Source of the DNA: an uncultured Granulosicoccaceae bacterium
Lineage (GTDB): Bacteria > Pseudomonadota > Gammaproteobacteria > CALCKW01
Length of the DNA: 64,000 bases
NCBI GenBank assembly: GCA_937965695.1
Contig: CALCKW010000059.1
Location: 351-64,350 of the forward strand
Direction: 5' to 3'
In this document: piece by piece, positions 38,263 to 63,260 of the stretch
Layout of the letters: every line of letters begins with the position of its first letter
Position numbering within the stretch: position 1 is the stretch's first letter
Program-made: the position numbers and the translations under genes
Notes under the pieces: model-generated
The model's database searches: none
What the model was told of the DNA's origin: nothing
Seen by the model: only the letters and a program-made list of their open reading frames with translations

Positions 38263-38356
38263 TTGTAAGAAGTATCGTTTTTTATCCGGACAACAGGTGT
38301 TGTCCAAGAACCGACGGGCAGGACTATGCCCGCATAATGACTCACTTAGGAGAGTA

Positions 38357-39607: not shown

Positions 39608-39619
39608 GGCTTAGCCCGA

Positions 39620-39648
39620 GATGGGTCGCTCTGACCCATCTTTTTTAA
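39620..39648 (+). terminator. Rho-independent terminator after the sugar SBP gene
   Basis: The sequence GATGGGTCgctctGACCCATC is followed by TTTTTTAA. Confidence 0.5.
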
Positions 39649-39649
39649 C

Positions 39650-40633: not shown

Positions 40634-40634
40634 C

Positions 40635-41589: not shown

Positions 41590-42729
41590 TTACCTGCCTG
41601 ACGGACTCTCACTCGGTGAAAGTTTTTTACGCTTTCCCAGCTTAAAGCGATCGGCTGTTGCGTATTCGCCTGCGGCGACACCGGCAGCAAAATCGCCAAA
41701 CACTGGGCCATGCTTGAACAGGTGGCCTGAACAACCACCGACCATCAACACCTTGTCGTGGGCAGGATGCCAGTCAACGATAAAATGCGTGTCAGGTGTA
41801 AGGATGATCTGATTGAACTTGCTGTCGACCACGCGCTCTCCCTCAAGACCAGGAAGGCGCTTACGGATGTATTGGCGTGTGCGGTCAATGGTGGAGCGGC
41901 GAATGAGTCGCTCGTCGTTATCTAGGTCAATTTTGTCCGGGATAACGACCGCTGCTTTAACACCGTGACCCTCCACTGAAGGCATACCAAAGCTGCCCTG
42001 ACCGTGGTCAATCCAGCAAGGCATATTGCTGTGGTCGTAACGCTCATTTCCAGCAGGCGTAGCGGTATAGAGTACATTGACACCTACCACCGTACTGATT
42101 GGTTTGATGGTGCGTGGAAACATATCAGCCATCCATGGCCCCGTAGCGATGATAATGCGATCCGCTTGCATGCGCTTGCCATCCAGCAGCGGGTATTCGT
42201 CGGCGTCTGTGCTGACAGCACCACGTTTGACGACACCCCCCAATTTCTGAAACAACTGCACCGCGGAAATAACCGCGCGGTGAGCCATTAGCAAGCCTGC
42301 CTCTGGTTCGTATATACCGTAAGCGATGTCATCGCTCTTGAACTGCGGAAATCTCACCGCCAGTTCACGTTGATCAAAGCGGTGGTGAGGGACACCCAGC
42401 TTGGAGAACGTTTCGCAGGTAGCGTCCTCCCAGTCGCAGTGCCCAGCGGTTGCCAAAATGAGGGCCCCGCATTCGTAGTAAAGGCGCTGTCCTGTTTCCT
42501 CTTGCAATTCAAGCCACTGCAGGCGTGCTTCTCGAGCCCAACGCGTGTAGAACTCGTCGCGGCCGTGAATGGCACGGATGACCCGGTTGTAATCGGTTGA
42601 CGACGCGCGCGGATGGCCTGGCTCCCATTTGTCGATCAACGTAACAGAGTGTCCTCGTCGCTGCAGAGATAGGGCGGTCATGGTGCCTGCGATACCGGCA
42701 CCCACCACAATAATGTCGTTGAAATTCAT
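41590..42729 (-). CDS. FAD-dependent oxidoreductase, DAO family (sarcosine-oxidase-beta / gamma-glutamyl-amine oxidase PuuB / opine-oxidase-like)
   Basis: The start is at MNFNDIIVVGAGIAGTMTALSL, a dinucleotide-binding motif, and the ORF is about 380 aa. It is divergent from the GS-like gene and shares the palindrome-bearing intergenic region. Confidence 0.75.
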   Translation of the reverse strand: MNFNDIIVVGAGIAGTMTALSLQRRGHSVTLIDKWEPGHPRASSTDYNRVIRAIHGRDEFYTRWAREARLQWLELQEETGQRLYYECGALILATAGHCDWEDATCETFSKLGVPHHRFDQRELAVRFPQFKSDDIAYGIYEPEAGLLMAHRAVISAVQLFQKLGGVVKRGAVSTDADEYPLLDGKRMQADRIIIATGPWMADMFPRTIKPISTVVGVNVLYTATPAGNERYDHSNMPCWIDHGQGSFGMPSVEGHGVKAAVVIPDKIDLDNDERLIRRSTIDRTRQYIRKRLPGLEGERVVDSKFNQIILTPDTHFIVDWHPAHDKVLMVGGCSGHLFKHGPVFGDFAAGVAAGEYATADRFKLGKRKKLSPSESPSGR

Positions 42730-42763
42730 TAATGTTCCAAAAAAACGTTGCAATTCGCGTTGA

Positions 42764-42780
42764 TTGAATACAGTATACAA
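42764..42780. promoter_or_regulatory. 17-bp near-palindrome TTGAATAC-A-GTATACAA, a candidate GntR-type operator in the divergent promoter region of the DAO gene and the BMC operon
   Basis: I read this directly from the sequence. A nearly identical element, cTGTATAC-A-GTATACAA, lies at 55538..55554. Confidence 0.45.
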
Positions 42781-42853
42781 AAACGCGAAAATGAGCAAGA
42801 TAAAGCATCGGATAGATGTATAGTAACGGTAAATCAACTCGGAGAGGTCGCAT

Positions 42854-44149
42854 ATGAATCAGCTGGATCCCACACTGCCTGAGGGTATTCACACTGTCGC
42901 CATGGGCATTGGAGACGCCAACGGCATCATGCGTGGCAAACGGATTCCCGCCAGTCATTGGAAATCGATCTGTGACGGGGGATGCACTATGTCACTCGCG
43001 ACCTTCGCTATTGATATGACGTGTGATGTTTGGGACACGCCCTATGTCAATTTCGACAACGGTTATCCGGATATGCATATTTTTCCGATCTCTCAGCCCA
43101 AAGAATGCCCGTGGGAGCCAGGGGTGGCCGTGTGTATGGCACAGGCCGTTGGCACAGACCATAAACCTGTGCCAATAGATCCTCGAAATGCGCTTGTTCG
43201 ACAGGTAGAGCGCGCACGAGAGATGGGTTTTGAAGTGAGTGTGGGGACAGAGCTGGAGTTTTATTTGCTTGACCCAGAAACTAAGATGCCTAAAGACGCA
43301 GGCATTGGTGTCTACAGCTTGGTGCGGGCTGCTGAGCTTGAACATGTGCTCGGGCCGATTCGCAATGGCTTGGTCGAAGTGGGTATTCCTATAGAACAAT
43401 CCAATCCCGAGTATGCCGCTGGTCAGGTGGAAGTGAATATTCGCTTTGACGAGGCACTGTTAGCCGCCGATCGTGTCGTGATGTTTCGCAATCTGGTGAA
43501 AGAACTTTCAATGCATCACGGCTACTTGGCAACGTTCATGTCCAAGCCCTTTTTGGAAGAGTCGGGTAGTGGCTTTCACACCCATTACTCGCTGTGGCGA
43601 GACGGTAAAAATCAGTTCAGTGATGATGGCAAGTTTAACCAACTCGGTCGTCATTTTGTGGCGGGCTTGCAAAAAAGAATGGCGGAGATGGCGCTTGCTT
43701 CAGCGTCTAACCCCAATGCCTATCGCCGACGTCAGCCATATACTTTTTGCCCGACCAATACCAGTTGGGGCCCCGACAATCGCACGGTGGGTTTGCGCGT
43801 GATCGAAGGCTCTGAAAGTGCTGCTCGTATCGAAAAACGTGATGGATCTGCAGATTGCAATCCTTATTACTTGCTCGCTTGCGAGTTGGCGGCGGGCCTG
43901 GATGGTATCGAGGCTGGCGAGGAGCCGTCTGAAATGACCACGGGCAATGCCTATGAATCCGAGACTGAAGGTCTTATCCCCGCTGACATGGCCACTGCAA
44001 TAGCCTTGGCGAAAGAGTCAACGTTTATGCGTGACGTTATGGGTGAAAGCGGGCTTCAGATCATGATTCAACAAGCAGAGCGAGAACTCGAATTCATCGC
44101 GACACCAATATCACCGGTAGAGATTGAGCGCTACCTTGGAAACTTTTAA
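42854..44149 (+). CDS. Glutamine-synthetase-family ligase (gamma-glutamyl-amine synthetase; GmaS/PuuA/IpuC-like)
   Basis: The ORF is 431 aa with a GS catalytic-domain pattern (…EVNIRFDEAL…GSGFHTHYSLW…NPYY…). Its stop overlaps the start of the BMC vertex gene (TAATG). Confidence 0.75.
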   Translation: MNQLDPTLPEGIHTVAMGIGDANGIMRGKRIPASHWKSICDGGCTMSLATFAIDMTCDVWDTPYVNFDNGYPDMHIFPISQPKECPWEPGVAVCMAQAVGTDHKPVPIDPRNALVRQVERAREMGFEVSVGTELEFYLLDPETKMPKDAGIGVYSLVRAAELEHVLGPIRNGLVEVGIPIEQSNPEYAAGQVEVNIRFDEALLAADRVVMFRNLVKELSMHHGYLATFMSKPFLEESGSGFHTHYSLWRDGKNQFSDDGKFNQLGRHFVAGLQKRMAEMALASASNPNAYRRRQPYTFCPTNTSWGPDNRTVGLRVIEGSESAARIEKRDGSADCNPYYLLACELAAGLDGIEAGEEPSEMTTGNAYESETEGLIPADMATAIALAKESTFMRDVMGESGLQIMIQQAERELEFIATPISPVEIERYLGNF

Positions 44150-44442
44150 TGCGCTTGGCTAATGTCACAGGCACTGTCACAGCGACAGTCAAATCTCAGT
44201 CGCTAACTGGGTTGAAGTTTTTGCTGGTGGACTATACAGACGCCGGCGGCAAAGTTATCGATGCGGCACGTGTTGTTGCGGACGATGTTGGTGCCGGCGT
44301 AGGTGACCAAGTCATTGTCAGCGAAGGATCAGCCGCACGATTACCCAATGGCATGGCAGGCTTAGCGGTGGACGCGACGGTTTTGGCCATTGTGGACGAG
44401 GTTAAAACAAAGGCAAGAAGGGCGGCAGCCAAGTCCGGCTGA
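44149..44442 (+). CDS. Bacterial microcompartment vertex protein (BMC-P; EutN/CcmL/PduN family)
   Basis: The sequence MRLANVTGTVTATVKSQSLTGLKFLLVDY…VGAGVGDQVIVSEGSAARL… has the typical EutN/CcmL pattern. The ORF is 97 aa. Confidence 0.85.
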   Translation: MRLANVTGTVTATVKSQSLTGLKFLLVDYTDAGGKVIDAARVVADDVGAGVGDQVIVSEGSAARLPNGMAGLAVDATVLAIVDEVKTKARRAAAKSG

Positions 44443-44557
44443 GATCCTATTAAATCTAGAACAGCTAAAAGGGCATAAGGCTCTTTTTACGAGCAGATTG
44501 GTTTTTACTTAAAGATCAATTGGTGCTTTTGAATATCACTTATAAAGGAAAAAAGTC

Positions 44558-44866
44558 ATGGCGACAAAACAAGCACCCGGGCAGTCAGCACTGGGCATGA
44601 TCGAGACACGGGGTTTGGTAGCAGCGGTTGAAGCGGCCGACGCAATGGTAAAAGCAGCTAACGTCACTATCGTAGGGCAAACCAAGGCTGGTGGTGGACT
44701 GATCACAATCCTAATCCGCGGCGAAGTCGGTGCTGTTAAAGCTGCAGCTGATGCTGGTGCCAATGCTGCAAATAAAGTGGGTGATGTTGTGGCCGTCCAC
44801 GTCATTCCGCGACCACACGATGAAGTCGAAGGAATTTTGAGCGCACTCGGCGGTGGCGGCGAGTAG
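44558..44866 (+). CDS. Bacterial microcompartment hexamer shell protein (BMC-H; PduA/EutM/CcmK family)
   Basis: The canonical Pfam00936 pattern is present: [58 protein letters not shown]…VHVIPRPH. The ORF is 102 aa. Confidence 0.9.
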
Positions 44867-45035
44867 TGCTCTGACAACGCGGCAAATTAGGATGCAGCGT
44901 GCCGTCGTATTTTTAGATATTCGAGCTAGTTATGAATCGCATTTTATTGACAATCATAGGTAATGCTAAGCGGGTGTCCTTTAGGAACGCTTTTGCTTCA
45001 TTTGTGCCGCGCTTTCAGAGCACGGAGGCTAACTG

Positions 45036-46244
45036 ATGAGCGACGTGGACTTCGAGCGCTTCACCCAGTCTCTGGGTGTTCAAACGTCAGGAGCAAGCGC
45101 TGCTACTTCGGCGAAACGTTTTGAGCGCGCATGCGTATTGGGTGGAGACAGCGATGCCTGGTTGTTGGCGGCAATTTGTGTGGCCAATGACACTCCGGTG
45201 AAATTGTTTTCTGCCTACGCTGCTGAGCTTGACCCACTGCGCTCAGCCGGTGGTGTGACACTGCGAGGCGCTGGACCCATAGGAACTGTCGCACTAGATC
45301 AAAGTAAGTCTGCAAGCATTGAGACAACCACGGTGCTTGATTCAGCTGTCAATGACAGCGATATCATCTTTTTAACTGGGCCAGTGCACAAACTGCGCAC
45401 CTGGGCGATGGTGTTGGCAGGTCATCTGCGTGATGGTCAGGTCGTTGTCGTTTTGAATGCTCGTACATTTGGCGCTTTAGAGACTCGAAGTTTGTTGAGG
45501 CTAGGTGGTAGTACGGCAGATTGCACTATCGTCGAGTTGCAAGGTGCACCTTGGTGGTTAGCTGCTTCAGGCACCCAACTGCAACTTTCAAAACGGACGG
45601 CCCCATTGGCGGCCACGCTTCCAGCTCGGCGCGAGCATGTGCTTCAGGGTTTGCAGGCTTTGATTGGTAAAATACAACCATGTACCTCAACACTCTACAG
45701 CAGTTTTGGAGATTGCAGTGGTGTTGTGGAATTACCTGCATTGGTGCTAGGCGGTCCGTTCAATCCCAACGGGGGACCAGCTGTTCCGGATGGTGCAAAC
45801 GCACTGCCTGTACATCAGAATTTTCATAACCTATTTGGTGAAAGCCATCGGCTTGTAGCCTCGCAATTGCTCGACGAACGTCGTTTGGTGGCCTCCAAGT
45901 TTGGTGTGCGAGATCTACCAAATCTTGAGTTGGCATTGAGCGACTATGCAGGCGGGGTTGAAGCAGATGATTCACGCGCAATTCCCAACTTGCAGCAAAG
46001 CAGAGAGATGCTCCGCTGTGCAGTAATTGCGTCGCTATTGCCATTGCAAAGTGCTGCGCAGTTGGCGGGTGTTGCAGTTCCTGTAACGCAGGCGATGACG
46101 ACACTGGGTAGCAGTTTGCTCGACGCTGATTTAACGGCGGCTGGACGATGGCTCGAAAGTTTGGGTGTGGCCAGTACGAGTTTCGATGATTGCAAGCGAT
46201 CTTTAGCTGAACTAATAGACGGAGAATCTAGCGGTGGACGCTGA
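45036..46244 (+). CDS. Opine-dehydrogenase-like (octopine/nopaline DH family) protein with N-terminal amphipathic-helix-plus-linker extension
   Basis: It is collinear with Arthrobacter-type opine dehydrogenase. The matching pairs are DSDIIFLTGPVHKLRTWAMVLAGHLRDGQVVVVLNARTFGALETRSLL versus DADVILIVVPAIHHASIAANIASYISEGQLIILNPGATGGALEFRKIL, and LLDERRLVASKFGV versus VDAERIAIAKAFDL. The GxGxxG motif is replaced by GGDSDAW. The first ~30 aa (VDFERFTQSL plus a GASAATSA linker) are extra. This assignment is by recalled homology and is not searched. Confidence 0.5.
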   Translation: MSDVDFERFTQSLGVQTSGASAATSAKRFERACVLGGDSDAWLLAAICVANDTPVKLFSAYAAELDPLRSAGGVTLRGAGPIGTVALDQSKSASIETTTVLDSAVNDSDIIFLTGPVHKLRTWAMVLAGHLRDGQVVVVLNARTFGALETRSLLRLGGSTADCTIVELQGAPWWLAASGTQLQLSKRTAPLAATLPARREHVLQGLQALIGKIQPCTSTLYSSFGDCSGVVELPALVLGGPFNPNGGPAVPDGANALPVHQNFHNLFGESHRLVASQLLDERRLVASKFGVRDLPNLELALSDYAGGVEADDSRAIPNLQQSREMLRCAVIASLLPLQSAAQLAGVAVPVTQAMTTLGSSLLDADLTAAGRWLESLGVASTSFDDCKRSLAELIDGESSGGR

Positions 46245-47613
46245 TTTAAGATCAATACAAGCAGCACGTGAGGCGGCCGATAAGGCTTTCACCGCATGGC
46301 AGACTTTTAAAAACACGGACCCAGCACAGATTGATGAAATAGTGCAGGCGATGGCGCGTGCCATTGAGCCTGAGGCCCTACGCTTGGCTGAGCTAGCGGT
46401 CGAAGAAACGGGTTACGGGAATGTGCCGGATAAACGCATAAAAAATCTGTTTAATTCTCTTTCAGTGGCTGAATGGCTGCGCGACATTAAGACGCTGGGC
46501 TTGTTGTGGCAGGATGAGCGAACCAAAATTGCCGCAATCGGTGAACCGATGGGTTTGGTGGCAGCGTTGATCCCGGTGACAAATCCCACATCGACCATTA
46601 TTTATAAGGTTTTGTCGGCTGTTAAGGCTGGCAACGCTATTGTTTGCGCGCCGCATCCACGTGGGGTCAAAAGCGGTGTTGCAACCGTAGAAATCATGGC
46701 GCGTGTTGCCGAGCAAATGGGTGCGCCTAAGGGACTCATTCAGTGTTTGGATCAAGTGACAAACCAAGGCACTGCTGAACTCATGAAACATCGACGTACG
46801 TCGGTGGTTATGGCTACCGGTGGACCGGCCATGGTGCAGGCCGCTTATTCATCTGGTAAGCCAACTCTGGCTGTTGGAGCAGGTAATGTGCCTTGTTATG
46901 TCCATGCCTCAAAAAAATCGGAACTAGCCGAGGTCGCTGAACAAATATTGACCTCTAAGAGCTTTGACTACGGCACCGCTTGTGTCTCGGAGCAGGCGAT
47001 TGTTGTCGATCGTGAAATTGCCGGGCAGTTGCGGCATGAGATGCGTATGCGTGGTGGTTATTTTTGCACCGCTTCCGAAGCTGAGCGTTTGGCAAAAGTG
47101 ATCTTTACGCCAAATAACAGCATGAACCCAAACAATGTAGGTCAATCACCTGAGAGTTTGGCTTCGCAGGCGGATATCCAAATTCCACCCAATTGCCGCG
47201 CTCTTATTGCCGATCAAAGTGAAATAGGCTGGCATGCTCCCTTGTCCGCAGAGAAATTAAACCCGGTGTTGGCTTGGTACGAAAGCAAAGACAGCGACGA
47301 GGGCATCGACATCTCTGAGCGGATCGCTAAGTTTGGCGGTTGGGGCCACAGTGCGGTGGTGCATTCAAATGATCCCGGCATTGTGAGTCAGTACAGCCGC
47401 CTGCCCGTTGGGCGTGTGCTGGCCAACACACCCGGTATTTTGGGTGGTATGGGATTCTCGACGGATCTAGAACCGAGTTTCATGCTGGGAACAGGCACCT
47501 CTTCTGGCTCCATTGTTTCTGACAATGTGACAGCCTTGCATTTGATTAATATAAAACGTGTCGCTTGGCAAAATAGGCCATGGCGAGACATCTATGATAT
47601 CTACGGAGAATAA
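46234..47613 (+). CDS. CoA-acylating aldehyde dehydrogenase (EutE/PduP-type metabolosome signature enzyme)
   Basis: The ORF is 459 aa in the ALDH superfamily. It has the BMC-AldDH-style N-terminal region (…FKNTDPAQIDEIVQAMARAIE…) and a catalytic Cys context (GTACVSEQ). It overlaps the upstream gene by 11 nt and sits between shell genes. Confidence 0.75.
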   Translation: MDADLRSIQAAREAADKAFTAWQTFKNTDPAQIDEIVQAMARAIEPEALRLAELAVEETGYGNVPDKRIKNLFNSLSVAEWLRDIKTLGLLWQDERTKIAAIGEPMGLVAALIPVTNPTSTIIYKVLSAVKAGNAIVCAPHPRGVKSGVATVEIMARVAEQMGAPKGLIQCLDQVTNQGTAELMKHRRTSVVMATGGPAMVQAAYSSGKPTLAVGAGNVPCYVHASKKSELAEVAEQILTSKSFDYGTACVSEQAIVVDREIAGQLRHEMRMRGGYFCTASEAERLAKVIFTPNNSMNPNNVGQSPESLASQADIQIPPNCRALIADQSEIGWHAPLSAEKLNPVLAWYESKDSDEGIDISERIAKFGGWGHSAVVHSNDPGIVSQYSRLPVGRVLANTPGILGGMGFSTDLEPSFMLGTGTSSGSIVSDNVTALHLINIKRVAWQNRPWRDIYDIYGE

Positions 47614-47615
47614 GC

Positions 47616-48242
47616 GTGGCGAGTAAAATTACTATACGAGCGTTGATGCAGATCGACCGCTTGCAGCCAAAATTTGCTGCCTACAACGGTGCAACGGTAC
47701 AAGGTTCTGTGCCGCTCGCGGGCGATACCGTGCTTATTGGTGAGTTTGCACCTGGGAATGGGGTGTTTACCTTAATTGATAAGGCGCTGAAAGCGAGCGC
47801 TGTTGAGGCTACTTCGCAGTTGGTCGAGCGCGAGTTTGGTTTTTTTATTCTTCGTTCTACGTCTAACGCGGAAGTGAGTGCGGCGAGAGATGCCATTCTC
47901 TCGGAGTTAGGCGCAAGCATGGAATCGCGTATCAAGCCTCAGCTTGAGTCTACTCAAATCATAACCTCCGTTGAGCCCTATCAAGCCCAATTGATTAATA
48001 AGTGGCGTAAAGGCGCATTGCTGGTTCCTGGCCAGACACTGGGTATTGTTGAGTGCTCGCCAGCGGCTTATATCTCTGTTGCGGCCAACGAAGCTGAAAA
48101 GGCAGCTCACATAGATATTGTAGAAGTGAGGGCGGTAGGACGTTTTGGTCGTTTGTTTATTTCTGGTGGTGAAGACGATGTGAAGACCGCCATCGCAGCC
48201 GCGAGCAAAGCCATTGAAGCAATGGATGGGCAGTCGGCCTAA
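47616..48242 (+). CDS. Tandem-BMC-domain shell protein (BMC-T, PduT-like)
   Basis: The ORF is 208 aa. The second half (TLGIVECSPAAYISVAANEAEKAAHIDIVEVRAVGRFGRLFISGGEDDVKTAIAAASKAIE) is a clear BMC domain. The first half is a more divergent BMC-like domain. Confidence 0.6.
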   Translation: MASKITIRALMQIDRLQPKFAAYNGATVQGSVPLAGDTVLIGEFAPGNGVFTLIDKALKASAVEATSQLVEREFGFFILRSTSNAEVSAARDAILSELGASMESRIKPQLESTQIITSVEPYQAQLINKWRKGALLVPGQTLGIVECSPAAYISVAANEAEKAAHIDIVEVRAVGRFGRLFISGGEDDVKTAIAAASKAIEAMDGQSA

Positions 48243-49423
48243 TGGCGGATTTGGTCAGCGATGCGGATGTCATTGCCGCTCATCGTCGAGGGCGGATGGT
48301 GATAGAAATCGTACCGGGAACGATTGTTACACAGCAAGCTCGTGATACTGCAGCGCGGCTGGGCGTCTCGCTACACGAGGGTTTGCTGGAGCGTCCTCAA
48401 GCGCCTCGCACTGATGGCAATGTGAGTTTGAGGCGTAACTTATGGCGTCGTAACCCTGGCTGGATTTCACCGCTAAATAAACCGACACCACGTGCACGCC
48501 GTATAAAAAAGTTAGCACTGATAGGTGCTGGCGGGGTAGGTGCCAATATTGCGCATTTGGTGTGCAATGCTCACTCAGCTGATCTAGTGTGCTTAATAGA
48601 TGTGGTGCCGGGCTTGGCAGAATCTGTCGCTTTGGACCTTGAGCATGCCACCGGTGTCAATCGATCTGCAACACGCGTCAGTGGTGGAGAATCGCTGCAA
48701 GCGGTTGCGGGTGCTGAAGTGGTTGTTGTTACAGCAGGGCGACCGCGTACACCGGGTATGGGTCGCAGTGATCTGCTGGATATTAACCGACGTGTTATCC
48801 GAACGGCAGCTCAGGCGATCAGTGAGCATGCACCAGAGGCGATTGTTATTGTTGTCACCAATCCCCTCGACGAGATGACCGTTGAAATGCTTCGCGCAAC
48901 AGGATTTCCGAGACAGCGAGTGCTTGGCATGGCCGGCACACTTGACAGCAGCCGGTTCCGCCGTGCACTAGCAAAAGAAGCGGGTGTTGCGGTGGCTGAT
49001 GTAGAAGCCATAACACTCGGCAGCCATGGCGATGAAATGACGCCAATCACTTCTCGCGCCCGTATTCGCGGTCGTACGTTAGAGACTGTGTTGTCGCAAG
49101 AGCAAATAGACGCCTGCGCAAAAGATGCCGTCACCGGTGGAGGGCAGGTAGTAGCACTGCGCAAGACGGGTTCAGCGACTGTTGCGCCTGCACACTCAAC
49201 CGTAGAACTCATTGACCACATCCGAGGTGCACTGAATGGCGCTGTGCCAGTCTCGGTAATGCTAGAAGGCGAATACGGAATAACTGGCGTAGTTCTAGGG
49301 GTCCCTTGCTTGATTGGTGCTAGCGGTGTGTTGGAGGTAGAAGAGCTGGCCTTAAATGAATCTGAAAGTCAGATGCTTCACGCGGCGGCGCAAGCGATTA
49401 CAGAGCGATTGAACGATGCCTGA
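48242..49423 (+). CDS. Lactate/malate dehydrogenase-family NAD-dependent 2-hydroxyacid dehydrogenase with ~90-aa N-terminal extension
   Basis: The LDH/MDH core begins at about aa 95: LALIGAGGVGANIAHL, VVVTAGRPRTPGMGRSDLL and GSHGDEMTPI (catalytic His). The preceding 90 aa (MADLVSDADVIAAHRRGRMVIEIVPGTIVTQQARDTAARLGVSL…) are not part of the LDH fold. The start overlaps the BMC-T stop (TAATG). Confidence 0.75.
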   Translation: MADLVSDADVIAAHRRGRMVIEIVPGTIVTQQARDTAARLGVSLHEGLLERPQAPRTDGNVSLRRNLWRRNPGWISPLNKPTPRARRIKKLALIGAGGVGANIAHLVCNAHSADLVCLIDVVPGLAESVALDLEHATGVNRSATRVSGGESLQAVAGAEVVVVTAGRPRTPGMGRSDLLDINRRVIRTAAQAISEHAPEAIVIVVTNPLDEMTVEMLRATGFPRQRVLGMAGTLDSSRFRRALAKEAGVAVADVEAITLGSHGDEMTPITSRARIRGRTLETVLSQEQIDACAKDAVTGGGQVVALRKTGSATVAPAHSTVELIDHIRGALNGAVPVSVMLEGEYGITGVVLGVPCLIGASGVLEVEELALNESESQMLHAAAQAITERLNDA

Positions 49424-49832
49424 TCCTGTTTTGTTGAAAGCGGCAGGCGGTGGTCGATTTGAAAAAATTGGCGCCTACGCGCGAGCGCGTCGCGTGGGCC
49501 CTTTTGTGTATGTGGCAGGCACGACTGCGATAGCGTCAAACGGGCTACTGCACGCACCCGGTGACACTTACGCACAAACGCTTTTTATCTTTGAACGCAT
49601 AGAGCAAGCATTGGCCGATGTACAAGCTGAGATGCGACATGTGGTCCGCACCCGAGCATTTTTTAGCGAAATCGCCAACGGTGGCGATTTCGTTCGTGCG
49701 CATGGTGAGGTTTTTACGGGTATCGAACCCGTCACCAGTGGCGTCGCCGCTGGATTGACAACCCCGGGCATGATGATTGAAATCGAAGTGGATGCTTTAG
49801 TCCACGACACCCAAGGAAATATACAGTGGTGA
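49416..49832 (+). CDS. RidA/YjgF/TdcF-family reactive enamine/imine deaminase
   Basis: The ORF is 138 aa with a RidA family pattern (…FVYVAGTTA… …TRAFFSEI… …GIEPVTSGV… …IEIEVDALV). It overlaps both neighbours. Confidence 0.75.
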   Translation: MPDPVLLKAAGGGRFEKIGAYARARRVGPFVYVAGTTAIASNGLLHAPGDTYAQTLFIFERIEQALADVQAEMRHVVRTRAFFSEIANGGDFVRAHGEVFTGIEPVTSGVAAGLTTPGMMIEIEVDALVHDTQGNIQW

Positions 49833-51706
49833 GCGGCGTTCATAACACCCCATCTGGCGGATGGGCCTCATGGTTCGATCTGCGCAGCCGCGAGTCCCTG
49901 TTGTCTGCGTTTCTACTTTTTGCGATCGTGTGTGTTTTGCTGGCGGCAGCCGCCTACTTTGAACTCGCTAGTCCTCGCTTACTCAAGATTGGCTGCGTCA
50001 ACTTAATCGCTGCATTAGCGCTGGGTCTTTTCAGCGGTTCAACGGGTGTTCTATCTCTCGGACATGTCGCGTTTTTTGGTATTGGCGCCTACGTTAGCGC
50101 GTGGTTCACTTTAATTCCCGCAATCAAAGGCATGCTCTTGCCTGACATGCCAGTTTTTATTCAGCAATCGCAGTGGAGTCTCTGGTTCGCCGTTATTCCA
50201 GCCATCATCGCTGGTCTATTGGCCGGTGTTTTGACTGGTTTCGTGATGCGGCGCTTGCGTGATACTTCCGCCGTTATCGCGAGTTTTGGTTTTTTAGTCA
50301 TTTTTTACCTTTTGTTTATAGGGTTGAAAATTTTTACGAATGGAAAACAATCCCTTTATGCCTTACCCATCGACCAATTGAGTTGGCCGTTAACCATGAC
50401 AGCGATCGCAACGGCTCTGCTTGTCACATTTGCCATACGCGCCAGTGCATTGGGAAGGGCGGCGGAGTCCTTGCGAGATAATGAAGCAGCTGCTCGTTCT
50501 GTTGGCGTAGACGCTGACCGTACCTTCTTTTGGGTGTGGGTCGCCAGTGCTGCACTGATGGCTATGGCTGGCGCCTTGTTTGCGCACTCCATTGGCATCG
50601 CGTCTCCTAGCAGTTTCTATTTAGATAAAACATTCGCTCTTATTGTGATGATAATCGTTGGGGGTTATCGGTCATTGACGGGTTGCGCTCTGGGTGCGGT
50701 GTTAATAACAATCGTTGAAGAATTACTAAAGCACGCAGAAGAATCTTTGGGTGCCCTTGCAGGCCAACAAGTACTGGGCGGTCTTATTGAAATGCCCCGT
50801 GTTTTTGGCCTAACGGCCTTGTGCTTCTCAGCGATTATTTTGTTGGTGTTGTATTTACGCCCAGAGGGCGTGATTGGCTATCGCGAATTGGCGCAAGCAG
50901 GTCTTATAAGACGACTGTTTGGGCGATGGCTCGAACCTGCCAGCAAGGGTGAAGAACAAGTCATCTACTCTGTGCCCAAGGAGTCGGAACTGTCCGCGCA
51001 GTCTTTGGGTAAAAATTATGGCTATTTTAGCGCCATGAGTGACGTGAGCTTTGAAGTAGGACCAGGGGAAATTGTTGGACTGATCGGGCCTAATGGTGCA
51101 GGTAAGAGCACCTTTATCAATGTAATGACCGGGAACCTTTTTGCGAGCTCTGGCGCTATTTTCCTAAACGGAGAAAATGCGACTCAGTGGAGTGCGCATG
51201 ACTTGGCGCGTCGTGGCATGGGCCGTACTTTTCAAAATATTCGGTTATTTGCCTCGCTTAGCACGTTGGACAATGTGCTGACGTCTGTCAACGTTGCCTC
51301 TCCCAAACTATCTCGTGTTGATGCTGAAGTGCTGGCGATGAATTGGCTACGCGAGCTTAATCTAGATCAGCACGCCCTGGAAGCAGGAGGCTCACTAGCC
51401 TATGGCGATCAGAGACGATTAGAAATAGCCCGTGCTTTGGCTTTGGAACCGCATTTCTTGCTGTTAGACGAACCCGCAGCGGGCATGAACGATTCCGAGA
51501 CCCATCAGTTGCAGCAATTGCTTAAAGATATCGTTCAGCGAATAGGTTGCGGTGTCATTTTGATCGAGCACGATATGCCAATGGTCATGGCGCTCTGCGA
51601 CCGACTGGTTGTGCTCAATAAGGGAGAGCAAATTGCCTCTGGCCCAGTGGCCGATGTGCGTAAAGATCCACAAGTTATAGAGGCTTACATCGGGGAATCA
51701 CCTTAA
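49826..51706 (+). CDS. Fused HAAT-family ABC transporter: LivM-like permease domain + LivG-like ATPase domain in one polypeptide
   Basis: The N-terminal ~370 aa are polytopic. The C-terminal ~250 aa carry Walker A ([10 protein letters not shown]), the signature (YGDQRRLEIARALA) and Walker B (LLLDEPAAGM). A GTG start overlaps the RidA stop. Confidence 0.75.
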   Translation: MVSGVHNTPSGGWASWFDLRSRESLLSAFLLFAIVCVLLAAAAYFELASPRLLKIGCVNLIAALALGLFSGSTGVLSLGHVAFFGIGAYVSAWFTLIPAIKGMLLPDMPVFIQQSQWSLWFAVIPAIIAGLLAGVLTGFVMRRLRDTSAVIASFGFLVIFYLLFIGLKIFTNGKQSLYALPIDQLSWPLTMTAIATALLVTFAIRASALGRAAESLRDNEAAARSVGVDADRTFFWVWVASAALMAMAGALFAHSIGIASPSSFYLDKTFALIVMIIVGGYRSLTGCALGAVLITIVEELLKHAEESLGALAGQQVLGGLIEMPRVFGLTALCFSAIILLVLYLRPEGVIGYRELAQAGLIRRLFGRWLEPASKGEEQVIYSVPKESELSAQSLGKNYGYFSAMSDVSFEVGPGEIVGLIGPNGAGKSTFINVMTGNLFASSGAIFLNGENATQWSAHDLARRGMGRTFQNIRLFASLSTLDNVLTSVNVASPKLSRVDAEVLAMNWLRELNLDQHALEAGGSLAYGDQRRLEIARALALEPHFLLLDEPAAGMNDSETHQLQQLLKDIVQRIGCGVILIEHDMPMVMALCDRLVVLNKGEQIASGPVADVRKDPQVIEAYIGESP

Positions 51707-51807
51707 CAGTGGGTTTCTCGTGTTCGGGTAATCTTTTAAATTATTCGAACTAAGTTAGAGCGTTACTTTTTTGCAGTTAATGTAATAAACACCTCGAAGC
51801 AACAGGA

Positions 51808-52989
51808 GTGAGAACGATGATCAAAAACCTACTAGCAGCAGCCGTGGTCGCCAGTGTTGGCATGACCACAGCACACGCAGATGGTCACGCAAAAGATTTC
51901 GTGATTGGCGCTGTCAACGCAAAAACAGGCTTCATGGCCGCATATGACGCACCTTTTATGCAGGGCGTGCAGATGTATATGGACGGTGCCAATGCTGATG
52001 GCGGCTTTATGGGTAAATACCCCATCAAGTTGATCGAACGCGATGATGGCTCAGACGTGCAAAAGTCTACGGTATCTACAGCCGAGTTGCTGCAGTCCGA
52101 AGAGCTGAATCTATTCATTACCTCTGCACTGGCTCCGTATGCCATTTCCGCAGGCAGCCAGGCATTGGCCAAAGACTTGTTAACTGTCCACACCATTGCA
52201 TCACAGCCCACGATTCCGGCGCGTTTGGGTGAAGGCAGTTACTTGGTCATGATGTCCGATGCCCATATGGGCGGTGTTTATGCCAAGTACGCTACTGACA
52301 CGCTCGAGGCTAAAACTGCTTATATCGTGACGAGTGACTTTGACCCCTACACTGAGTTTCTCCCATTGTATTTTAAAGAGAAATTTGAAGCAGCTGGCGG
52401 TAAAGTCATCGGTCAATCTGACTTTGCCTACGATCAGCAAGAGTTCTCATCAGTCGTCTCTGCGATCAAAGCGCTACCCGAACAACCCGATGTCATTATG
52501 GGAATGCCGTTCGATAACGATTTCCCTATCTTTATTAACCAGCTTCGTGCTGCTGGGGTGAAGTCGGTCTACCTGGGTCCAGACACCCTCGATTTGCCTT
52601 CTGTTAAAGGGTTAGGTGATGTCGTTGAAGGGGTGCATTACGTGACCATGGCTGCTCCTTCTAGCAGCGAGGCCGCGGGTGACTTTGTCAAGGCATATGG
52701 CGAGCGGTATGGCAGCGAAGACAGTGCGTATCCAGCGATGGTGGGTTATTCGTTCATGCGTATGGTTGAAGCGGCAGTCAATGCGGCGGGTGGCACGGAT
52801 GCAGCGGCAGTTCGTGCAGCATTTGCTCAGCTAGAAAATGTCGAAACTGAAATTGGTTCCGTCACTTTTAAAGGCTTTGGTGCGTTACCTAATCTTCCGG
52901 TGCATGTGATGCGCATAGAAGGCGGTAAAGGTGTTCATGTCGAGTCTATTTTGTTAGAGGCAGACGAAATACCAACACCACGTTCTTGA
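51808..52989 (+). CDS. HAAT-family periplasmic substrate-binding protein (LivK/UrtA/FmdD-like)
   Basis: A signal peptide (MIKNLLAAAVVASVGMTTAHA) and a PBP1 HAAT-type profile are present. The ORF is about 390 aa. Confidence 0.7.
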   Translation: MRTMIKNLLAAAVVASVGMTTAHADGHAKDFVIGAVNAKTGFMAAYDAPFMQGVQMYMDGANADGGFMGKYPIKLIERDDGSDVQKSTVSTAELLQSEELNLFITSALAPYAISAGSQALAKDLLTVHTIASQPTIPARLGEGSYLVMMSDAHMGGVYAKYATDTLEAKTAYIVTSDFDPYTEFLPLYFKEKFEAAGGKVIGQSDFAYDQQEFSSVVSAIKALPEQPDVIMGMPFDNDFPIFINQLRAAGVKSVYLGPDTLDLPSVKGLGDVVEGVHYVTMAAPSSSEAAGDFVKAYGERYGSEDSAYPAMVGYSFMRMVEAAVNAAGGTDAAAVRAAFAQLENVETEIGSVTFKGFGALPNLPVHVMRIEGGKGVHVESILLEADEIPTPRS

Positions 52990-53078
52990 GGGCGTGATTA
53001 GCGATGGTGTCGGGAATAGGGCCTGGCACCATTGGCTATCCATGCAAGCATGTTTGATAAATTGACAGAGCTTCGATT

Positions 53079-53795
53079 GTGAAAAAAGCAGTGTTAGAGG
53101 TCGAAAATCTGGTTGTTCAATACGGCCAAATTTCTGCGGTGCAAGGGGTCAACCTAACCGTCAATGAAAATGAGTTGGTCACCGTTATCGGGGCTAATGG
53201 TGCCGGGAAGACTTCTACTTTAAATGCCATGATGGGGTTAGTTCCTGCGGCTAGCGGAGAAATTCGCTACAAGGGTGAATCCCTTTTGCACATGCCGGTT
53301 GAAAAGCGCCCAAGTATGGGTATTGCATTTTCACCTGAGGGACGAAGAGTCTTTGGGCCTTTGTCTGTGCGCGACAATTTGCGGGTCGGTGGGAATAGCC
53401 TGCCGGCCTCTCAGGTTGACGGTCGCATTGACGAAATGGTTGAGCGATTTCCTATTTTGGGAGAGCGCCTACAGCAAGCAGCGGGGACGCTTTCTGGTGG
53501 AGAACAGCAGATGTTAGCCATTGCGCGTGCGCTGATGATTTCCCCCGATTTTTTAATTCTCGATGAACCCTCGTTGGGGTTGGCTCCTATTGTCGTCGCA
53601 CAAGTGTTTGAGTTGATCGCTGAGCTTCATGCGGAAGGTGTGGCAATACTATTGGTTGAACAAAACGTTAGAAAAAGCTTGGCTATTGCTGATCGAGCTT
53701 ACGTTATGGAACTGGGACGCTTTGTGCGTGAAGGTGCAGCCGATGAATTGGCTGCAGACCCATCCATAGAAAATAGCTATCTCGGCGCGGCTTAA
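53079..53795 (+). CDS. HAAT-family ABC ATPase (LivF-like)
   Basis: Walker A (GANGAGKTST), the LSGGEQQMLAIARAL signature and Walker B (LILDEPSLGL) are present. A GTG start is likely. Confidence 0.8.
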   Translation: MKKAVLEVENLVVQYGQISAVQGVNLTVNENELVTVIGANGAGKTSTLNAMMGLVPAASGEIRYKGESLLHMPVEKRPSMGIAFSPEGRRVFGPLSVRDNLRVGGNSLPASQVDGRIDEMVERFPILGERLQQAAGTLSGGEQQMLAIARALMISPDFLILDEPSLGLAPIVVAQVFELIAELHAEGVAILLVEQNVRKSLAIADRAYVMELGRFVREGAADELAADPSIENSYLGAA

Positions 53796-53833
53796 AGGCC
53801 GCCTGAATAATTTAGGTTTCTTGGGAGATAGAC

Positions 53834-54721
53834 TTGGACCTCTTTTTACAATTTCTAGTCTCAGTGCTGAGTCTTGGCGGCGTGTATGCGCTACTAGCTT
53901 TGGGGCTGTCTACCGTTTTTGGATTGTTGGGATTTCTCAACTTTGCACACGGTGATCTGATGACAATCTGTGGCTATGGCTTGTACTTTATGCTGGCTGC
54001 GGGATTTGGTTTTGTTCCTGCGGCTACGCTCGCTCTCGCGCTGGCTGCATTGGCAGCAGTTTTAATGGAGCGCTTGGCATTTCGACCGTTGCGTGGTCGC
54101 AACCCGATGACGCTGCTTATTACTTCTTTTGCCCTGTCGTTGGCCTTACATGTTAGCTTTCAGATTTTTATAAGCCCAAAACCTAAGCCCATTCCCGTAC
54201 CAGAGTTTTTGTCAGGTTATTTTACTATTGGTGAAATTTTTATAAGCCGCGCGCAAGTAATCGCTATTGTCGTCTCTGTGTTGTCATTAGTGCTGCTTAA
54301 TCTTTTCGTCAATCGCACGCGCCTCGGCGTAGCACTGCGTGCCGCTGCGGCAGATTTTGATGTAGCGAGAGCTTTTGGCGTAAAGGCTAATCAAGTTATT
54401 GCAATCGCTTTCGCGTTGAGTGGCTTGCTCGCGGGATTGGCAGCATTGGTGTGGATATCACAGCGAGGTGCAGTGTTTCCCACCATGGGATTGACCCCAA
54501 TGGTGAAGGCGCTGATAGCCGTCATTATCGGAGGGCTGTCGAATCCGCGCGGCGCGCTCTTGGGTGGTTTTATGTTGGGCTTATTGGAAGCGGGCTTTCT
54601 ATTTACTCTTCCAGATAGCCTTGTGTTGTACCGGGACGCCTTGGTGTTGCTGGTGTTGATTCTGTTTTTGATGTTTAGGCCTAACGGATTGATTGCGACC
54701 AATCCAGAGCCGATGCGGTAG
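53834..54721 (+). CDS. HAAT-family ABC permease (LivH-like)
   Basis: It is a polytopic protein of 295 aa. Confidence 0.75.
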   Translation: MDLFLQFLVSVLSLGGVYALLALGLSTVFGLLGFLNFAHGDLMTICGYGLYFMLAAGFGFVPAATLALALAALAAVLMERLAFRPLRGRNPMTLLITSFALSLALHVSFQIFISPKPKPIPVPEFLSGYFTIGEIFISRAQVIAIVVSVLSLVLLNLFVNRTRLGVALRAAAADFDVARAFGVKANQVIAIAFALSGLLAGLAALVWISQRGAVFPTMGLTPMVKALIAVIIGGLSNPRGALLGGFMLGLLEAGFLFTLPDSLVLYRDALVLLVLILFLMFRPNGLIATNPEPMR

Positions 54722-54743
54722 AGCGATATATCTCAAAGGCAAT

Positions 54744-55409: not shown

Positions 55410-55537
55410 ATAGAGGTGAGAGTGTTCCTGACAATGGAGCGTGAAATTTAGCTGAACGAGCCGCCTGAGCGGCTTTTAGAGCCAAAAACTGGGTGTTTAA
55501 AAAAACATCATAGCAATGATTGATTGATTCAGGAATA

Positions 55538-55554
55538 CTGTATACAGTATACAA
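55538..55554. promoter_or_regulatory. 17-bp palindrome cTGTATAC-A-GTATACAA, a candidate GntR-type operator between the GntR gene and the mgsA-like gene
   Basis: I read this directly from the sequence. It shares 16/17 positions with the site at 42764..42780, and the 13-mer ATACAGTATACAA is identical in both. Confidence 0.45.
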
Positions 55555-55576
55555 CGTACATTATGAGGGGAATAAC

Positions 55577-56521
55577 ATGTGTGGGATAGCTGGGAGAATT
55601 TTAAATAGCCCTGGCCGTGTCGGTGATGACTTAGTCGATCTGATGGCGGCCCAGTCTCACCGGGGGGCCGACTCGACAGGTTTTGCTGTATACGGGCCGC
55701 CAAGAACCGATGGTTATATCGTTCGCGCGATGGGTTTTGATCGAAGTGCAATGGACTCGGATCTGGCAGACTTTGAGAAGATCTTGCGTCAACACGGCTC
55801 AGACTGGTTGGAAGAGCCAACGTGGAACGGTGGCACTGATAGCCATTACTCAGTACGTGCTGTTATTAAAGACCCTTCAGACATCGCGCAGTGGATAAAA
55901 GAAGCCGATGCTATATGTGAACGTCTCGAGGTGCAATCGCTCGGTCGCTCACTGGAGATTGTCAAGGACACGGGTGATGCGAATGCCGTTGCGGAAAAAC
56001 ATGGTGTTCGTGAAATGGTGGGCACTCATGGATTAGGTCATGCACGTTTGGCCACTGAAAGCTCGGTACTGCCTAATGCCAGCCACCCTTTTTGGGCGCG
56101 ACCGTTCCCCGATGTAGCCATTGTGCACAACGGACAGATTACTGACTACTACACGCAGCGCGATCGCCTAGAGCGCAAGGGTTATCGATTTATGACCCAG
56201 AACGACAGTGAGTTGATTGCCGTATGGGTCTCCGACCAGATGTCGCAGGGGCTCGATAAACACGAAGCGCTGCGCAAGTCGATCGATTCTATTGATGGGG
56301 TATTTACCTTCCTCATTACTGACCCAACCAGCATGGGGTTCGCCAAAGATCGTTTTGCCATGAAACCGCTTGTGACGGTGGAATCTGTAGGTCAATTGTC
56401 CGCTGCAACGGAAGAGCAAGCCGTTCGACGTATCGAGCCTGAAGAATCAGATGTGATCAACTACGACGGTCCTTCAATGACTCGTCTATGGCCGGTTGAT
56501 TCGACGGAGGCTGCAGCATGA
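55577..56521 (+). CDS. Class-II (Ntn) glutamine amidotransferase domain protein (GltB1 / N-methylglutamate-synthase subunit A-like)
   Basis: The start is called at the ATG preceded by GAGGGG, giving MCGIAGRIL… with the nucleophilic Cys at position 2 after Met removal. The ORF is about 314 aa. Confidence 0.7.
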   Translation: MCGIAGRILNSPGRVGDDLVDLMAAQSHRGADSTGFAVYGPPRTDGYIVRAMGFDRSAMDSDLADFEKILRQHGSDWLEEPTWNGGTDSHYSVRAVIKDPSDIAQWIKEADAICERLEVQSLGRSLEIVKDTGDANAVAEKHGVREMVGTHGLGHARLATESSVLPNASHPFWARPFPDVAIVHNGQITDYYTQRDRLERKGYRFMTQNDSELIAVWVSDQMSQGLDKHEALRKSIDSIDGVFTFLITDPTSMGFAKDRFAMKPLVTVESVGQLSAATEEQAVRRIEPEESDVINYDGPSMTRLWPVDSTEAAA

Positions 56522-57210
56522 GCGAAGTTGAAGTCAAAGTAGGCGAGCGGTCTATTCGTGAGATCAACGAAGAAATCCAGGAGCACGCCGCAAACGGTTT
56601 GCCGATGCACATTACCGATACACTCTCTAGACATAACTTAGGTATTGGTTTGCCAAAAGGGGCAAAGTTGCGCTTTGATGGCAGCGTTGGTTATTACTGC
56701 GGTGGTTTGAATAACGGCGCGACGATTACCGTGGAGCGTAATTCAGGCTGGGGCACTGGTGAAGCACAGGCAGCAGGGGATATCACCGTCGGCGGTTATG
56801 CGGGGATGTCTGTGGGTGCGGCGATGCTCGGCGGTGTAATCCATGTCAAAGGTGACTGCGGCCCTCGTTGCGGTGTGGCGATGAAAGGTGGCGATATTAT
56901 TGTCGAAGGCAAACTCGGTTATCAAGCTGGGTTTATGTCGCACGGCGGGCGCATAATAGCGCTCGGCGGTGCGGGTGAGTCTTGTGCTGATGCGCTTTGG
57001 GAAGGCGAGGTCTGGGTTGCCGGGCCGGTCGAGTCACTGGGTGTGGACGCCAAAATTGTCGAGCCTGAGGCAGCAGAAATTGCCTCGGTAGAAGAACTGC
57101 TAGCCACACGTGGTTTGGCAGACAACAACAGAGAGTGGCGCAAAATCGTATCCGGTCAGCGCCTGTGGTACTTCGAGAGTCGGGAAGCAAACGCATGGCT
57201 AATGATATGA
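56518..57210 (+). CDS. GXGXG-motif glutamate-synthase C-terminal-domain-like protein (GltB3 / MgsB-like)
   Basis: Repeated GxGxG beta-helix motifs are present (GGVIHVKGDCGPRCGVAMKGGDIIVEGKLGYQAGFMSHGGRIIALGGAGE). The ORF is 230 aa. It overlaps the previous gene by 4 nt. Confidence 0.7.
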   Translation: MSEVEVKVGERSIREINEEIQEHAANGLPMHITDTLSRHNLGIGLPKGAKLRFDGSVGYYCGGLNNGATITVERNSGWGTGEAQAAGDITVGGYAGMSVGAAMLGGVIHVKGDCGPRCGVAMKGGDIIVEGKLGYQAGFMSHGGRIIALGGAGESCADALWEGEVWVAGPVESLGVDAKIVEPEAAEIASVEELLATRGLADNNREWRKIVSGQRLWYFESREANAWLMI

Positions 57211-63175: not shown

Positions 63176-63260
63176 TGGTGGCTCAGGTGGGACTCGAACC
63201 CACATGTCTTGCGACGCGTGATTTTGAATCACGTGCGTATACCAATTCCGCCACTGAGCC
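63176..63260 (-). tRNA. tRNA-Leu (anticodon CAA), class II with long variable arm
   Basis: The reverse complement reads GGCTCAGTGGCGGAATTGGTATACGCACGTGATTCAAAATCACGCGTCGCAAGACATGTGGGTTCGAGTCCCACCTGAGCCACCA. It has a 7-bp acceptor stem and an anticodon loop TTCAAAA (CAA). The GGTTCGAGTCC T-loop, a long variable arm and an encoded CCA are present. Confidence 0.85.

Follow-up and report, generated by a model that had tools for sequence, protein, structure and literature searches.

Operators of the FadR subfamily of GntR regulators follow the consensus NyGTM-N0-1-KACNy in A/T-rich flanks (Suvorova et al. 2015, PMC4494728). Most of them are single palindromes with 3 nt between GT and AC, and 7-bp repeat units exist in the GntR family as well, such as the TGGTATT direct repeats of NagQ (PMC4494728). 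Here, we describe a repeated-hexamer motif found in two divergent promoter regions of a 64,000-nt stretch of DNA from an uncultured Granulosicoccaceae bacterium (contig CALCKW010000059.1; the whole stretch is referred to as the window). The motif lies within a locus spanning 41590 to 58625, in which a bacterial microcompartment (BMC) operon headed by a glutamine synthetase-like (GS-like) gene, a gene for a DAO-family FAD-dependent oxidoreductase, an mgsABC-like operon and a gntR gene are found together. Based on comparative sequence analysis, we propose that the two copies of the motif (sites 1 and 2) are operators of the GntR regulator encoded in the locus, most likely a repressor of a small regulon, and put the probability of this reading at about 82%.

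Two characterized repressors provide the closest points of comparison. Atu1419 of Agrobacterium fabrum is a VanR-group member of the FCD/FadR subfamily (PDB 6Z74, 6ZA0-6ZAB; PMC7797058). Its dimer binds a 10-bp palindrome, ATGTATACAT, in which Arg45 reads G3, Thr46 reads A5 of the opposite strand and T4 is contacted on the phosphate only (PMC7797058). These palindromes overlap -10 boxes, and both the regulator's own gene and catabolic genes are repressed (PMC7797058). NanR of E. coli is a FadR-subfamily repressor that binds as three dimers, one per hexamer, to (GGTATA)3, with a cooperativity that requires a 32-residue N-terminal extension (PMC8012715).

The microcompartment itself resembles a described type. 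In the BMC catalogue, the MIC types are metabolosomes with an incomplete core, and MIC2-7 are listed among the types without known function (PMC8217296). Supplementary Data 2 of that catalogue (Sutter et al. 2021, PMC8217296) gives the MIC2 enzymes as an aldehyde dehydrogenase, a PF02866 dehydrogenase extended at its N-terminus, a 6PGDH-like protein and a PF00120 glutamine synthetase, and the supplement counts 22 MIC2 loci. The enzyme set and shell proteins of the window locus match this type by Pfam and homologue annotation. The MIC2 entries of the catalogue name no regulator and leave the DAO gene, mgsABC and the transporter out of the unit (PMC8217296); the shared operator adds them. Our literature search found no later work on MIC2, no paper joining a microcompartment with an opine dehydrogenase, or with all three of glutamine synthetase, GntR and aldehyde dehydrogenase, and, among the papers listed, none in which a microcompartment and N-methylglutamate appear together.

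Site 1 (TTGAATACAGTATACAA, 42764-42780) lies inside the 124-bp gap between the divergent DAO and GS-like genes (ATG at 42729 on the minus strand and at 42854, respectively), and site 2 (CTGTATACAGTATACAA, 55538-55554) inside the 167-bp gap between gntR (ATG at 55409, minus strand) and the mgsA-like gene (ATG at 55577). A first-pass annotation of the sequence had placed both 17-mers in these divergent promoter regions and had noticed that they share the 13-mer ATACAGTATACAA, and it was correct on both counts. It had also counted 16 identical positions out of 17; the actual figure is 15, with differences at positions 1 and 4. Exact copies of ATACAGTATACAA occur nowhere else in the window, and with up to two mismatches it has five matches versus 0.89 expected, a number reached in 0 of 100 shuffles. 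A position weight matrix was built from the matches in relatives, with the window left out of training. At a threshold of at least 8 bits across the 64 kb, it returned just site 1, site 2 and the extra unit of site 2. Site 1 scores 26.7 bits with this matrix, which is trained on orthologous loci only, and site 2 scores 28.5 bits (55539-55553) and 18.9 bits (55532-55546). No third site was found in the window: neither the DNA preceding the transporter genes nor the operon-internal gaps gave a score above -11 bits.

The relatives are marine Alpha- and Gammaproteobacteria, each species being represented by a single locus (80 loci, 1.45 Mb in total). The loci were gathered via homologue alignment of the opine-dehydrogenase-like protein, with a protein identity of 44-50% to the window, and one additional locus was obtained through an exact-protein look-up. 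Hoeflea, Nitratireductor, Microbaculum, Aliishimia, many Paracoccaceae, Granulosicoccaceae, Arenicellales and Geminicoccaceae are among them. Cultured carriers of the system include Hoeflea poritis E7-10, Hoeflea alexandrii, Nitratireductor sp. XY-223, Microbaculum marinum KCTC 52363 and Aliishimia ponticola MYP11. Their conserved gene order is [gntR(-) mgsABC(+)] DAO(-) GS(+) EutN BMC-H ODH (opine-dehydrogenase-like) AldDH (aldehyde dehydrogenase) BMC-T MDH RidA, followed by the transporter. A site of at least 16 bits is present in 71 of 71 DAO-GS regions and in 30 of 30 divergent gntR-mgsA regions, and the ABC transporter is usually preceded by the motif too. The sequence TGTATACNGTATACA, allowing up to two mismatches, has 258 matches in these loci, every one in a DAO-GS, gntR-mgsA or RidA-transporter region. 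Likewise, all 245 matches of at least 20 bits fall in promoter regions of locus genes, versus none in shuffles. The palindrome is in this way conserved upstream of orthologous loci, and within the scanned loci it does not behave as a generic repeat. The proposal of the first-pass annotation that the microcompartment, the FAD oxidase and the glutamate-synthase-like genes form one regulon is strongly supported by this comparative genomics, and the relatives would add the ABC transporter to it.

Alignment of the relatives also revealed the architecture of the operator. In an unbiased count, the most widely common 8-mer was ATACAGTA, found in 66 of 71 DAO-GS and 30 of 30 gntR-mgsA regions. The repeat unit is a hexamer, G-N-A-T-A-C, with the ideal form T-GTATAC-A, and units are kept in strict 7-bp phase: ATAC-to-ATAC spacings of 7 (85 cases) and 14 (48 cases) predominate. 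Three GNATNC units in this phase are found in 60 of 70 DAO-GS regions and 24 of 27 gntR-mgsA regions, and four are never found. The first junction base is T (60/60) and the second is A (54/60), which makes the middle unit T-GTATAC-A, and the outer hexamers vary chiefly at position 2. The canonical operator is 22 bp long, T-GNATAC-T-GTATAC-A-GNATAC-A. The two sequences that the first-pass annotation described as a 17-bp palindromic operator are real, but the usual operator consists of three phased hexamers. We did not find a fixed triple array in 7-bp phase described in the literature searched.

Site 2 is of the three-unit form, reaching one 7-bp unit further left than the 17-mer, with hexamers at 55533-55538, 55540-55545 and 55547-55552, and its centre lies 31 nt before the mgsA ATG (24-33 nt in relatives). 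Site 1 consists of two hexamers, GAATAC (42766-42771) and GTATAC (42773-42778), joined by an A at 42772, and belongs to a two-unit minority form (10 of 70 relatives). Its centre is 43 nt from the DAO ATG, a distance that is mostly 36-42 nt in relatives. The DAO-GS gap has a median of only 92 bp in relatives, which fits a single shared promoter and operator module between the two genes. In one Thiolinea metagenome-assembled genome (MAG), an insertion of about 1.3 kb splits this gap, and a perfect operator is present at both ends of it (5606-5620 and 6918-6932 of that locus, L033), one adjoining DAO and the other adjoining GS. In the window only, site 1 is bracketed by the repeat TTCGCGTT/AACGCGAA, whose centre is at most 0.5 bp from that of the site, giving a near-palindrome of about 36 bp. 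The estimated chance expectation of such a repeat in the gap is roughly 0.06; the repeat might be a site for another protein or have a structural role.

The motif is linked to the gntR gene itself, and not just to the microcompartment. Three genomes were checked in which gntR is unlinked to the microcompartment: Hoeflea poritis, a Limibaculum MAG, where 1.1 Mb of the same contig separates the two, and a Granulosicoccaceae MAG. Each of them has gntR divergent from mgsABC with the motif in between (25.7-26.7 bits). One of these modules has the motif before a neighbouring transporter as well, and nothing else of at least 12 bits was found in the 12.6 kb of the unlinked modules. The gntR orthologues are 53-63% identical.

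A reverse search with the 22-mer TGNATACTGTATACAGNATACA against a metagenome collection yielded 80 loci. About 22 of these belong to this regulon (18 DAO-GS, 3-4 MgsA-GntR and 1 beside RidA), and no new member of the regulon appeared. Another 26 adjoin other GntR-family genes, whose products are 25-45% identical and which reside in DNA of 34-73% GC; all ten of those tested by Pfam are GntR+FCD proteins. Examples of the 22-mer beside other GntR-family genes are found at 2474-2495 of L089, 1223-1244 of L131 and 11433-11454 of L146 (among loci L086-L165). About 8 of the 80 are 7-bp microsatellites, (GTATACW)n, in low-GC DNA, and the remaining matches lie at contig ends or are ambiguous. Low-GC contigs with long (GTATACW)n runs that fit the operator pattern exactly (L143, L162, L163, L134, L094 and L132) are a source of false positives in pattern searches for the motif. 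The motif class therefore tracks FCD-type GntR proteins in independent lineages, which supports the assignment to the local GntR protein, and the triple hexamer seems to represent an operator class of wide distribution. The tie between motif and gntR drawn in the first-pass annotation is strengthened by both the three unlinked modules and these 26 metagenome matches.

The GntR protein consists of 13 residues followed by a GntR winged helix (PF00392, residues 14-76, 1e-16, 60.8 bits versus a cutoff of 27) and a C-terminal FCD domain (PF07729, residues 86-208, 5e-26, 92 bits versus a cutoff of 24.3). All of its best PDB matches are FCD regulators, among them Atu1419 (E = 4e-14), the nearest homologue solved with DNA. 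Pfam found no other DNA-binding-domain protein between 41590 and 58625, and the GntR/FCD protein is, as the first-pass annotation had it, the only regulator of the locus. Apart from having the same domain pair, Atu1419 shares an identical recognition helix, SRTPVREAL, and its DNA contacts Arg45, Thr46, Arg49 and Arg31 align to Arg50, Thr51, Arg54 and Arg36 of the window protein. The helix SRTP[VIL]REAL is present in 119 of 120 orthologues and in 19 of 24 unrelated motif-adjacent regulators, which is consistent with the assignment of the motif to the window protein but does not discriminate. At the DNA level, ATGTATACAT includes the TGTATACA core of the operator described here, the uncontacted T4 corresponds to the variable hexamer position, and two sites per divergent region are found in many relatives, as for Atu1419. 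There are differences as well: the overall sequence similarity is modest, Atu1419 uses single 10-bp palindromes 109-190 bp apart that are looped by a tetramer, whereas 2-3 units abut at 7 bp here, and its effector, methylene-tetrahydrofolate, acts in a hydroxycinnamate pathway unrelated to this locus.

NanR resembles the present system in having three tandem hexamers of similar sequence (GGTATA versus GGATAC/GTATAC). The GntR protein of the window, with its 13 residues before the winged helix, does not have a long N-terminal extension and is not NanR-type. The NanR repeats are direct and spaced at 8-9 bp in the E. coli nanA operator, versus 7 bp here. With generic FadR operators, the window sites share a position in a divergent promoter beside the regulator gene and A/T-rich flanks, and they differ in being arrays. 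A literature search for the Bacillus subtilis GntR operator, TTGTATACAA, gave no usable comparison.

How many dimers would occupy such an array depends on what the binding unit is. The first-pass annotation had regarded a single GTATAC arm as a half-site of GntR/FadR shape. The shape is indeed there, given that one T-GTATAC-A unit satisfies the subfamily consensus GTM-N0-1-KAC with N0, but with Atu1419 as a precedent the supposed half-site equals a full dimer site. By this analogy, we lean slightly towards one dimer per hexamer, with two to three dimers packed on the array. A possible but less favoured geometry is one GntR dimer per inverted repeat of 15-17 bp, a monomer on each GTATAC arm, with two overlapping registers in three-unit sites. 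It would explain why the junction ATAC-W-GTA is the most conserved element and why stand-alone two-unit sites exist (site 1 of the window and many transporter sites), and its 7-bp half-site spacing is the same as in FadR TGGT-N3-ACCA (PMC9728974; PMC4494728). It fits less well with Atu1419, which uses the same helix to place a dimer on one TGTATACA and contacts guanines 5 bp apart, that is, within a hexamer and not across a junction. In addition, every hexamer alone fits the subfamily's GTM-KAC, and the strong preference for three units joined first by T and next by A leaves the middle unit a perfect TGTATACA.

The position of the operators relative to the promoters suggests how they may work. 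In alignments of relatives anchored on the palindrome core, a (c)TTG is conserved 26 nt upstream of the core on the mgsA, GS and DAO strands: on the mgsA side in 30 relatives, and at the same distance from the DAO -10 in 65 relatives. This places TAC[A/T]GT at the -10 position with a 17-nt spacer, and the core probably serves as the -10 of all three promoters, those of mgsA, DAO and GS. In the DAO-GS region of these 65 relatives, the -10 elements of opposite strands overlap as TACWGTA, with TTG 17 nt away on both strands. Such an arrangement is reminiscent of bidirectional promoters, in which -11A and -7T coincide reciprocally on the two strands and starts lie 18 bp apart (Warman et al. 2021, summarised in PMC10268837). 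In TACWGTA, too, the A(-11)/T(-7) pairs coincide. In the window, the candidate GS promoter -10 overlaps the predicted opposite-strand DAO -10 to form the symmetric TACAGTA, and the fit to the bidirectional type is exact on the minus strand, with the plus-strand -35 off by 2 nt. The GS promoter of relatives has a CTTgcc box 17 nt from TACTGT, to which the window is a poorer fit. An operator located on the predicted -10 would repress by excluding RNA polymerase, and one operator array on overlapping -10 elements would switch both the DAO and the GS transcription units.

Some GntR-family proteins activate transcription, and the window protein could likewise bind its sites as an activator or dual regulator. 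We consider this improbable, since the sites overlap the predicted -10 and start region and are not located upstream of the -35, and since the nearest characterized relatives with such overlaps, Atu1419 and NanR, repress.

Several points weigh against the assignment of both sites to a repressor encoded in the locus. Site 1 is limited to two units, and the -35 proposed for the GS promoter of the window is 2 nt out of register. A generic sigma-70 promoter scan called no promoter in either region, so that the promoter model rests on conservation. The matrix was trained on matches to the consensus, which makes its scores, though not the locations of the matches, partly circular. As to genome-wide specificity, the scans covered 64 kb of this genome and, for each relative, about 21 kb. 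Autoregulation of gntR via site 2, as put forward in the first-pass annotation, is uncertain and finds no support in this genome: 123 bp separate the site from the gntR ATG, and no gntR-proximal site was found, with a best score of -12 bits across 55410-55531. Finally, 23 long loci have no gntR within 10 kb of the microcompartment (three of them are the genomes checked above), and a paralogue elsewhere in the genome could bind too, given that the motif class flanks unrelated FCD regulators.

The last two points could be taken further, to a scenario in which some factor from outside the locus occupies the motif, be it an FCD paralogue or a global regulator of nitrogen or carbon metabolism, and the adjacent GntR is irrelevant. 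Cross-talk between paralogues is conceivable where unrelated FCD regulators use the same motif class. Even so, this scenario seems quite improbable to us, a little more so than activation. The motif abuts gntR in every divergent gntR-mgsA region and in every unlinked module examined, and a separate site 30-50 bp from the gntR start is present in 15 of about 30 relatives. Moreover, the motif follows the GntR/FadR consensus and agrees with the DNA in the solved complex of a homologue, and no second DNA-binding protein is encoded in the locus.

Another view is that the motif is nothing but conserved promoter sequence, namely a symmetric -10 and the bases flanking it, with no regulator binding there. 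The exact 17-nt distance between TACWGT and a conserved TTG in three promoter classes would be expected in this case. However, the 22 bp are near-invariant in 7-bp phase, which goes far beyond the needs of a -10 element, and the motif recurs beside unrelated GntR/FCD genes in DNA of 34-73% GC. In addition, most gntR-mgsA regions of relatives that have two sites carry the second copy 53-87 bp away. We therefore regard this view as very unlikely. That the motif is a dispersed or simple repeat present in two promoters by coincidence can be practically discounted: some of the metagenome matches are indeed microsatellites, but just two places match in the window, none of the matches in the relatives lies outside promoter regions of locus genes, and the number of units is fixed at 2-3.

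Three other candidates were rejected. The spacing does not suit an NtcA- or CRP-type site (GTA-N8-TAC), for which the inner bases are also conserved too strongly. A sigma-54 promoter would be compatible with the TTGCA at 42748, but a GG at the -24 position is lacking. The loop of an RNA hairpin would be 1 nt long, and the motif is used on both strands.

Coordinates of the operators, promoters and genes are collected in Table 1.

Table 1. Operators, predicted promoters and genes of the locus (positions in the window)
Feature	Position	Strand	Details
DAO-family FAD-dependent oxidoreductase	41590..42729	-	PF01266, 1e-44
Candidate GS/microcompartment promoter	42748..42774	+	-10 TACAGT 42769-42774; nearest -35-like TTGCAA 42748-42753; spacer 15 nt
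Outer 8-bp inverted repeat, perfect	42754-42761 / 42782-42789		TTCGCGTT / AACGCGAA
Operator site 1, core 15-mer	42765-42779		TGAATAC-A-GTATACA
Predicted DAO promoter	42770..42798	-	-35 TTGCTC 42798..42793; 17-nt spacer; -10 TACTGT 42775..42770, within operator
GS-like / microcompartment / transporter operon	42854..54721	+	Pfam
Opine-dehydrogenase-like protein, 402 aa	45036-46244	+	No Pfam match; homologues annotated octopine/nopaline dehydrogenase family, PF02317
gntR, predicted cognate repressor, 221 aa	54744..55409	-	Pfam
Predicted mgsA promoter	55520..55548	+	-35 TTGATT 55520-55525; 17-nt spacer; -10 TACAGT 55543-55548 = operator core
Operator site 2, three-unit	55532..55553		G-GAATAC-T-GTATAC-A-GTATAC-A
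mgsABC-like operon: class-II amidotransferase, GXGXG subunit, glutamate-synthase FMN subunit	55577..58625	+	Pfam GATase/GXGXG/Glu_synthase

The gene calls of the first-pass annotation (DAO, GS-like, BMC, GntR/FCD and mgsABC-like) were borne out by Pfam. The large operon encodes, in order, the GS-like protein (Gln-synt_C), EutN, BMC-H, the opine-dehydrogenase-like protein, an acylating aldehyde dehydrogenase, a second BMC-domain shell protein (CsoS1D_N + BMC), an LDH/MDH-like protein (dehydrogenase domain from residue 90), RidA, a LivM-LivG fusion, a substrate-binding protein (SBP), LivF and LivH. In the window (49416-49832 / 49826-51706), as well as in L036 and L076, the LivM-LivG fusion overlaps RidA and is followed by SBP, LivF and LivH; with this overlap, the transporter genes of the window appear to be fused to the operon. 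These three loci do not have the separate transporter operator that is seen in most relatives. In the mgsABC-like operon, the open reading frame listed for the glutamate-synthase-like subunit begins with a GTG that lies 75 bp within the GXGXG gene (57135-57210) and encodes 496 aa, versus 473 aa in L002, so that translation probably starts farther downstream.

Between gntR and the mgsA promoter, a GC-rich hairpin, GAGCCGC-CTGA-GCGGCTTTT, is followed by TTTT (55459-55481, plus strand). A terminator scan made no call at this hairpin, which might insulate the mgsA promoter from read-through from the upstream operon. In four Arenicellales-type loci (L049, L065, L073 and L064, the last labelled just Gammaproteobacteria), gntR and mgsA point in the same direction, and the DNA between them holds no strong site. 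The same four loci carry a weak site, TGAGTACTGAATTCR (13-17 bits), between BMC-H and the opine-dehydrogenase-like gene at about 9996 (5558 in L064), which hints at an internal promoter there. Further afield, the window has a GC content of about 50% and Pseudomonadota-like best hits; an unrelated galactoside cluster (GalT, a GH42 beta-galactosidase and a sugar ABC transporter) lies upstream at 35297-41486 on the plus strand, and a tRNA gene at 63179-63260 on the minus strand is the only Rfam match.

The regulon would comprise the DAO gene, the GS-like/microcompartment/transporter operon and the mgsABC-like operon, and in many relatives also gntR and an ABC transporter with a transcription unit of its own. 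A route for amine breakdown can be outlined from the enzyme families and the analogy with the established N-methylglutamate pathway (GmaS, MgsABC). The GS-like enzyme would carry out an ATP-dependent gamma-glutamylation of an amine, and the mgsABC-like complex would convert the gamma-glutamyl product to an N-alkyl-glutamate. The opine-dehydrogenase-like enzyme and/or DAO might then release an aldehyde by oxidation, with RidA quenching imines; the 402-aa opine-dehydrogenase-like protein is a candidate for the signature enzyme that cleaves N-alkyl-glutamate. Inside the shell, the aldehyde would be oxidized to an acyl-CoA, and the MDH-like enzyme would recycle NAD. A metabolite of this pathway, likeliest the amine substrate or a gamma-glutamyl or N-alkyl-glutamate intermediate, may bind the FCD domain and thereby release GntR from its sites.

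A local GntR repressor with palindromic operators in divergent promoters is a textbook arrangement. More tentatively, we suggest that (GNATAC)3 in 7-bp phase might be a distinct, widespread operator of FCD-type GntR proteins. Two to three dimers might pack on it without a NanR-like extension, at a symmetric, shared -10 element, and switch both arms of a bidirectional promoter. On this proposal, which we hold to be doubtful as a whole, the operator would couple MIC2 to amine breakdown via gamma-glutamyl and N-alkyl-glutamate intermediates, and the effector could be used to identify the substrate of the compartment.

The footprint described here is deep, covering about 80 species with no off-target matches in the scanned loci, and adds a well-sampled, phased multi-hexamer GntR operator on a probable bidirectional promoter. 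The operator ties together five parts, even where these are unlinked: the compartment, the GS-like ligase, the FAD oxidase, the N-methylglutamate-synthase-like complex and an amino-acid-type ABC transporter. Such sharing would be regulon-level evidence that the compartment serves the breakdown of amines via gamma-glutamyl and N-alkyl-glutamate intermediates, with the aldehyde handled in the shell. Several cultured marine strains carry the system, and the regulator and its 22-bp site would offer a handle, in vitro or in reporter strains, on the inducer and hence on the substrate of this microcompartment.

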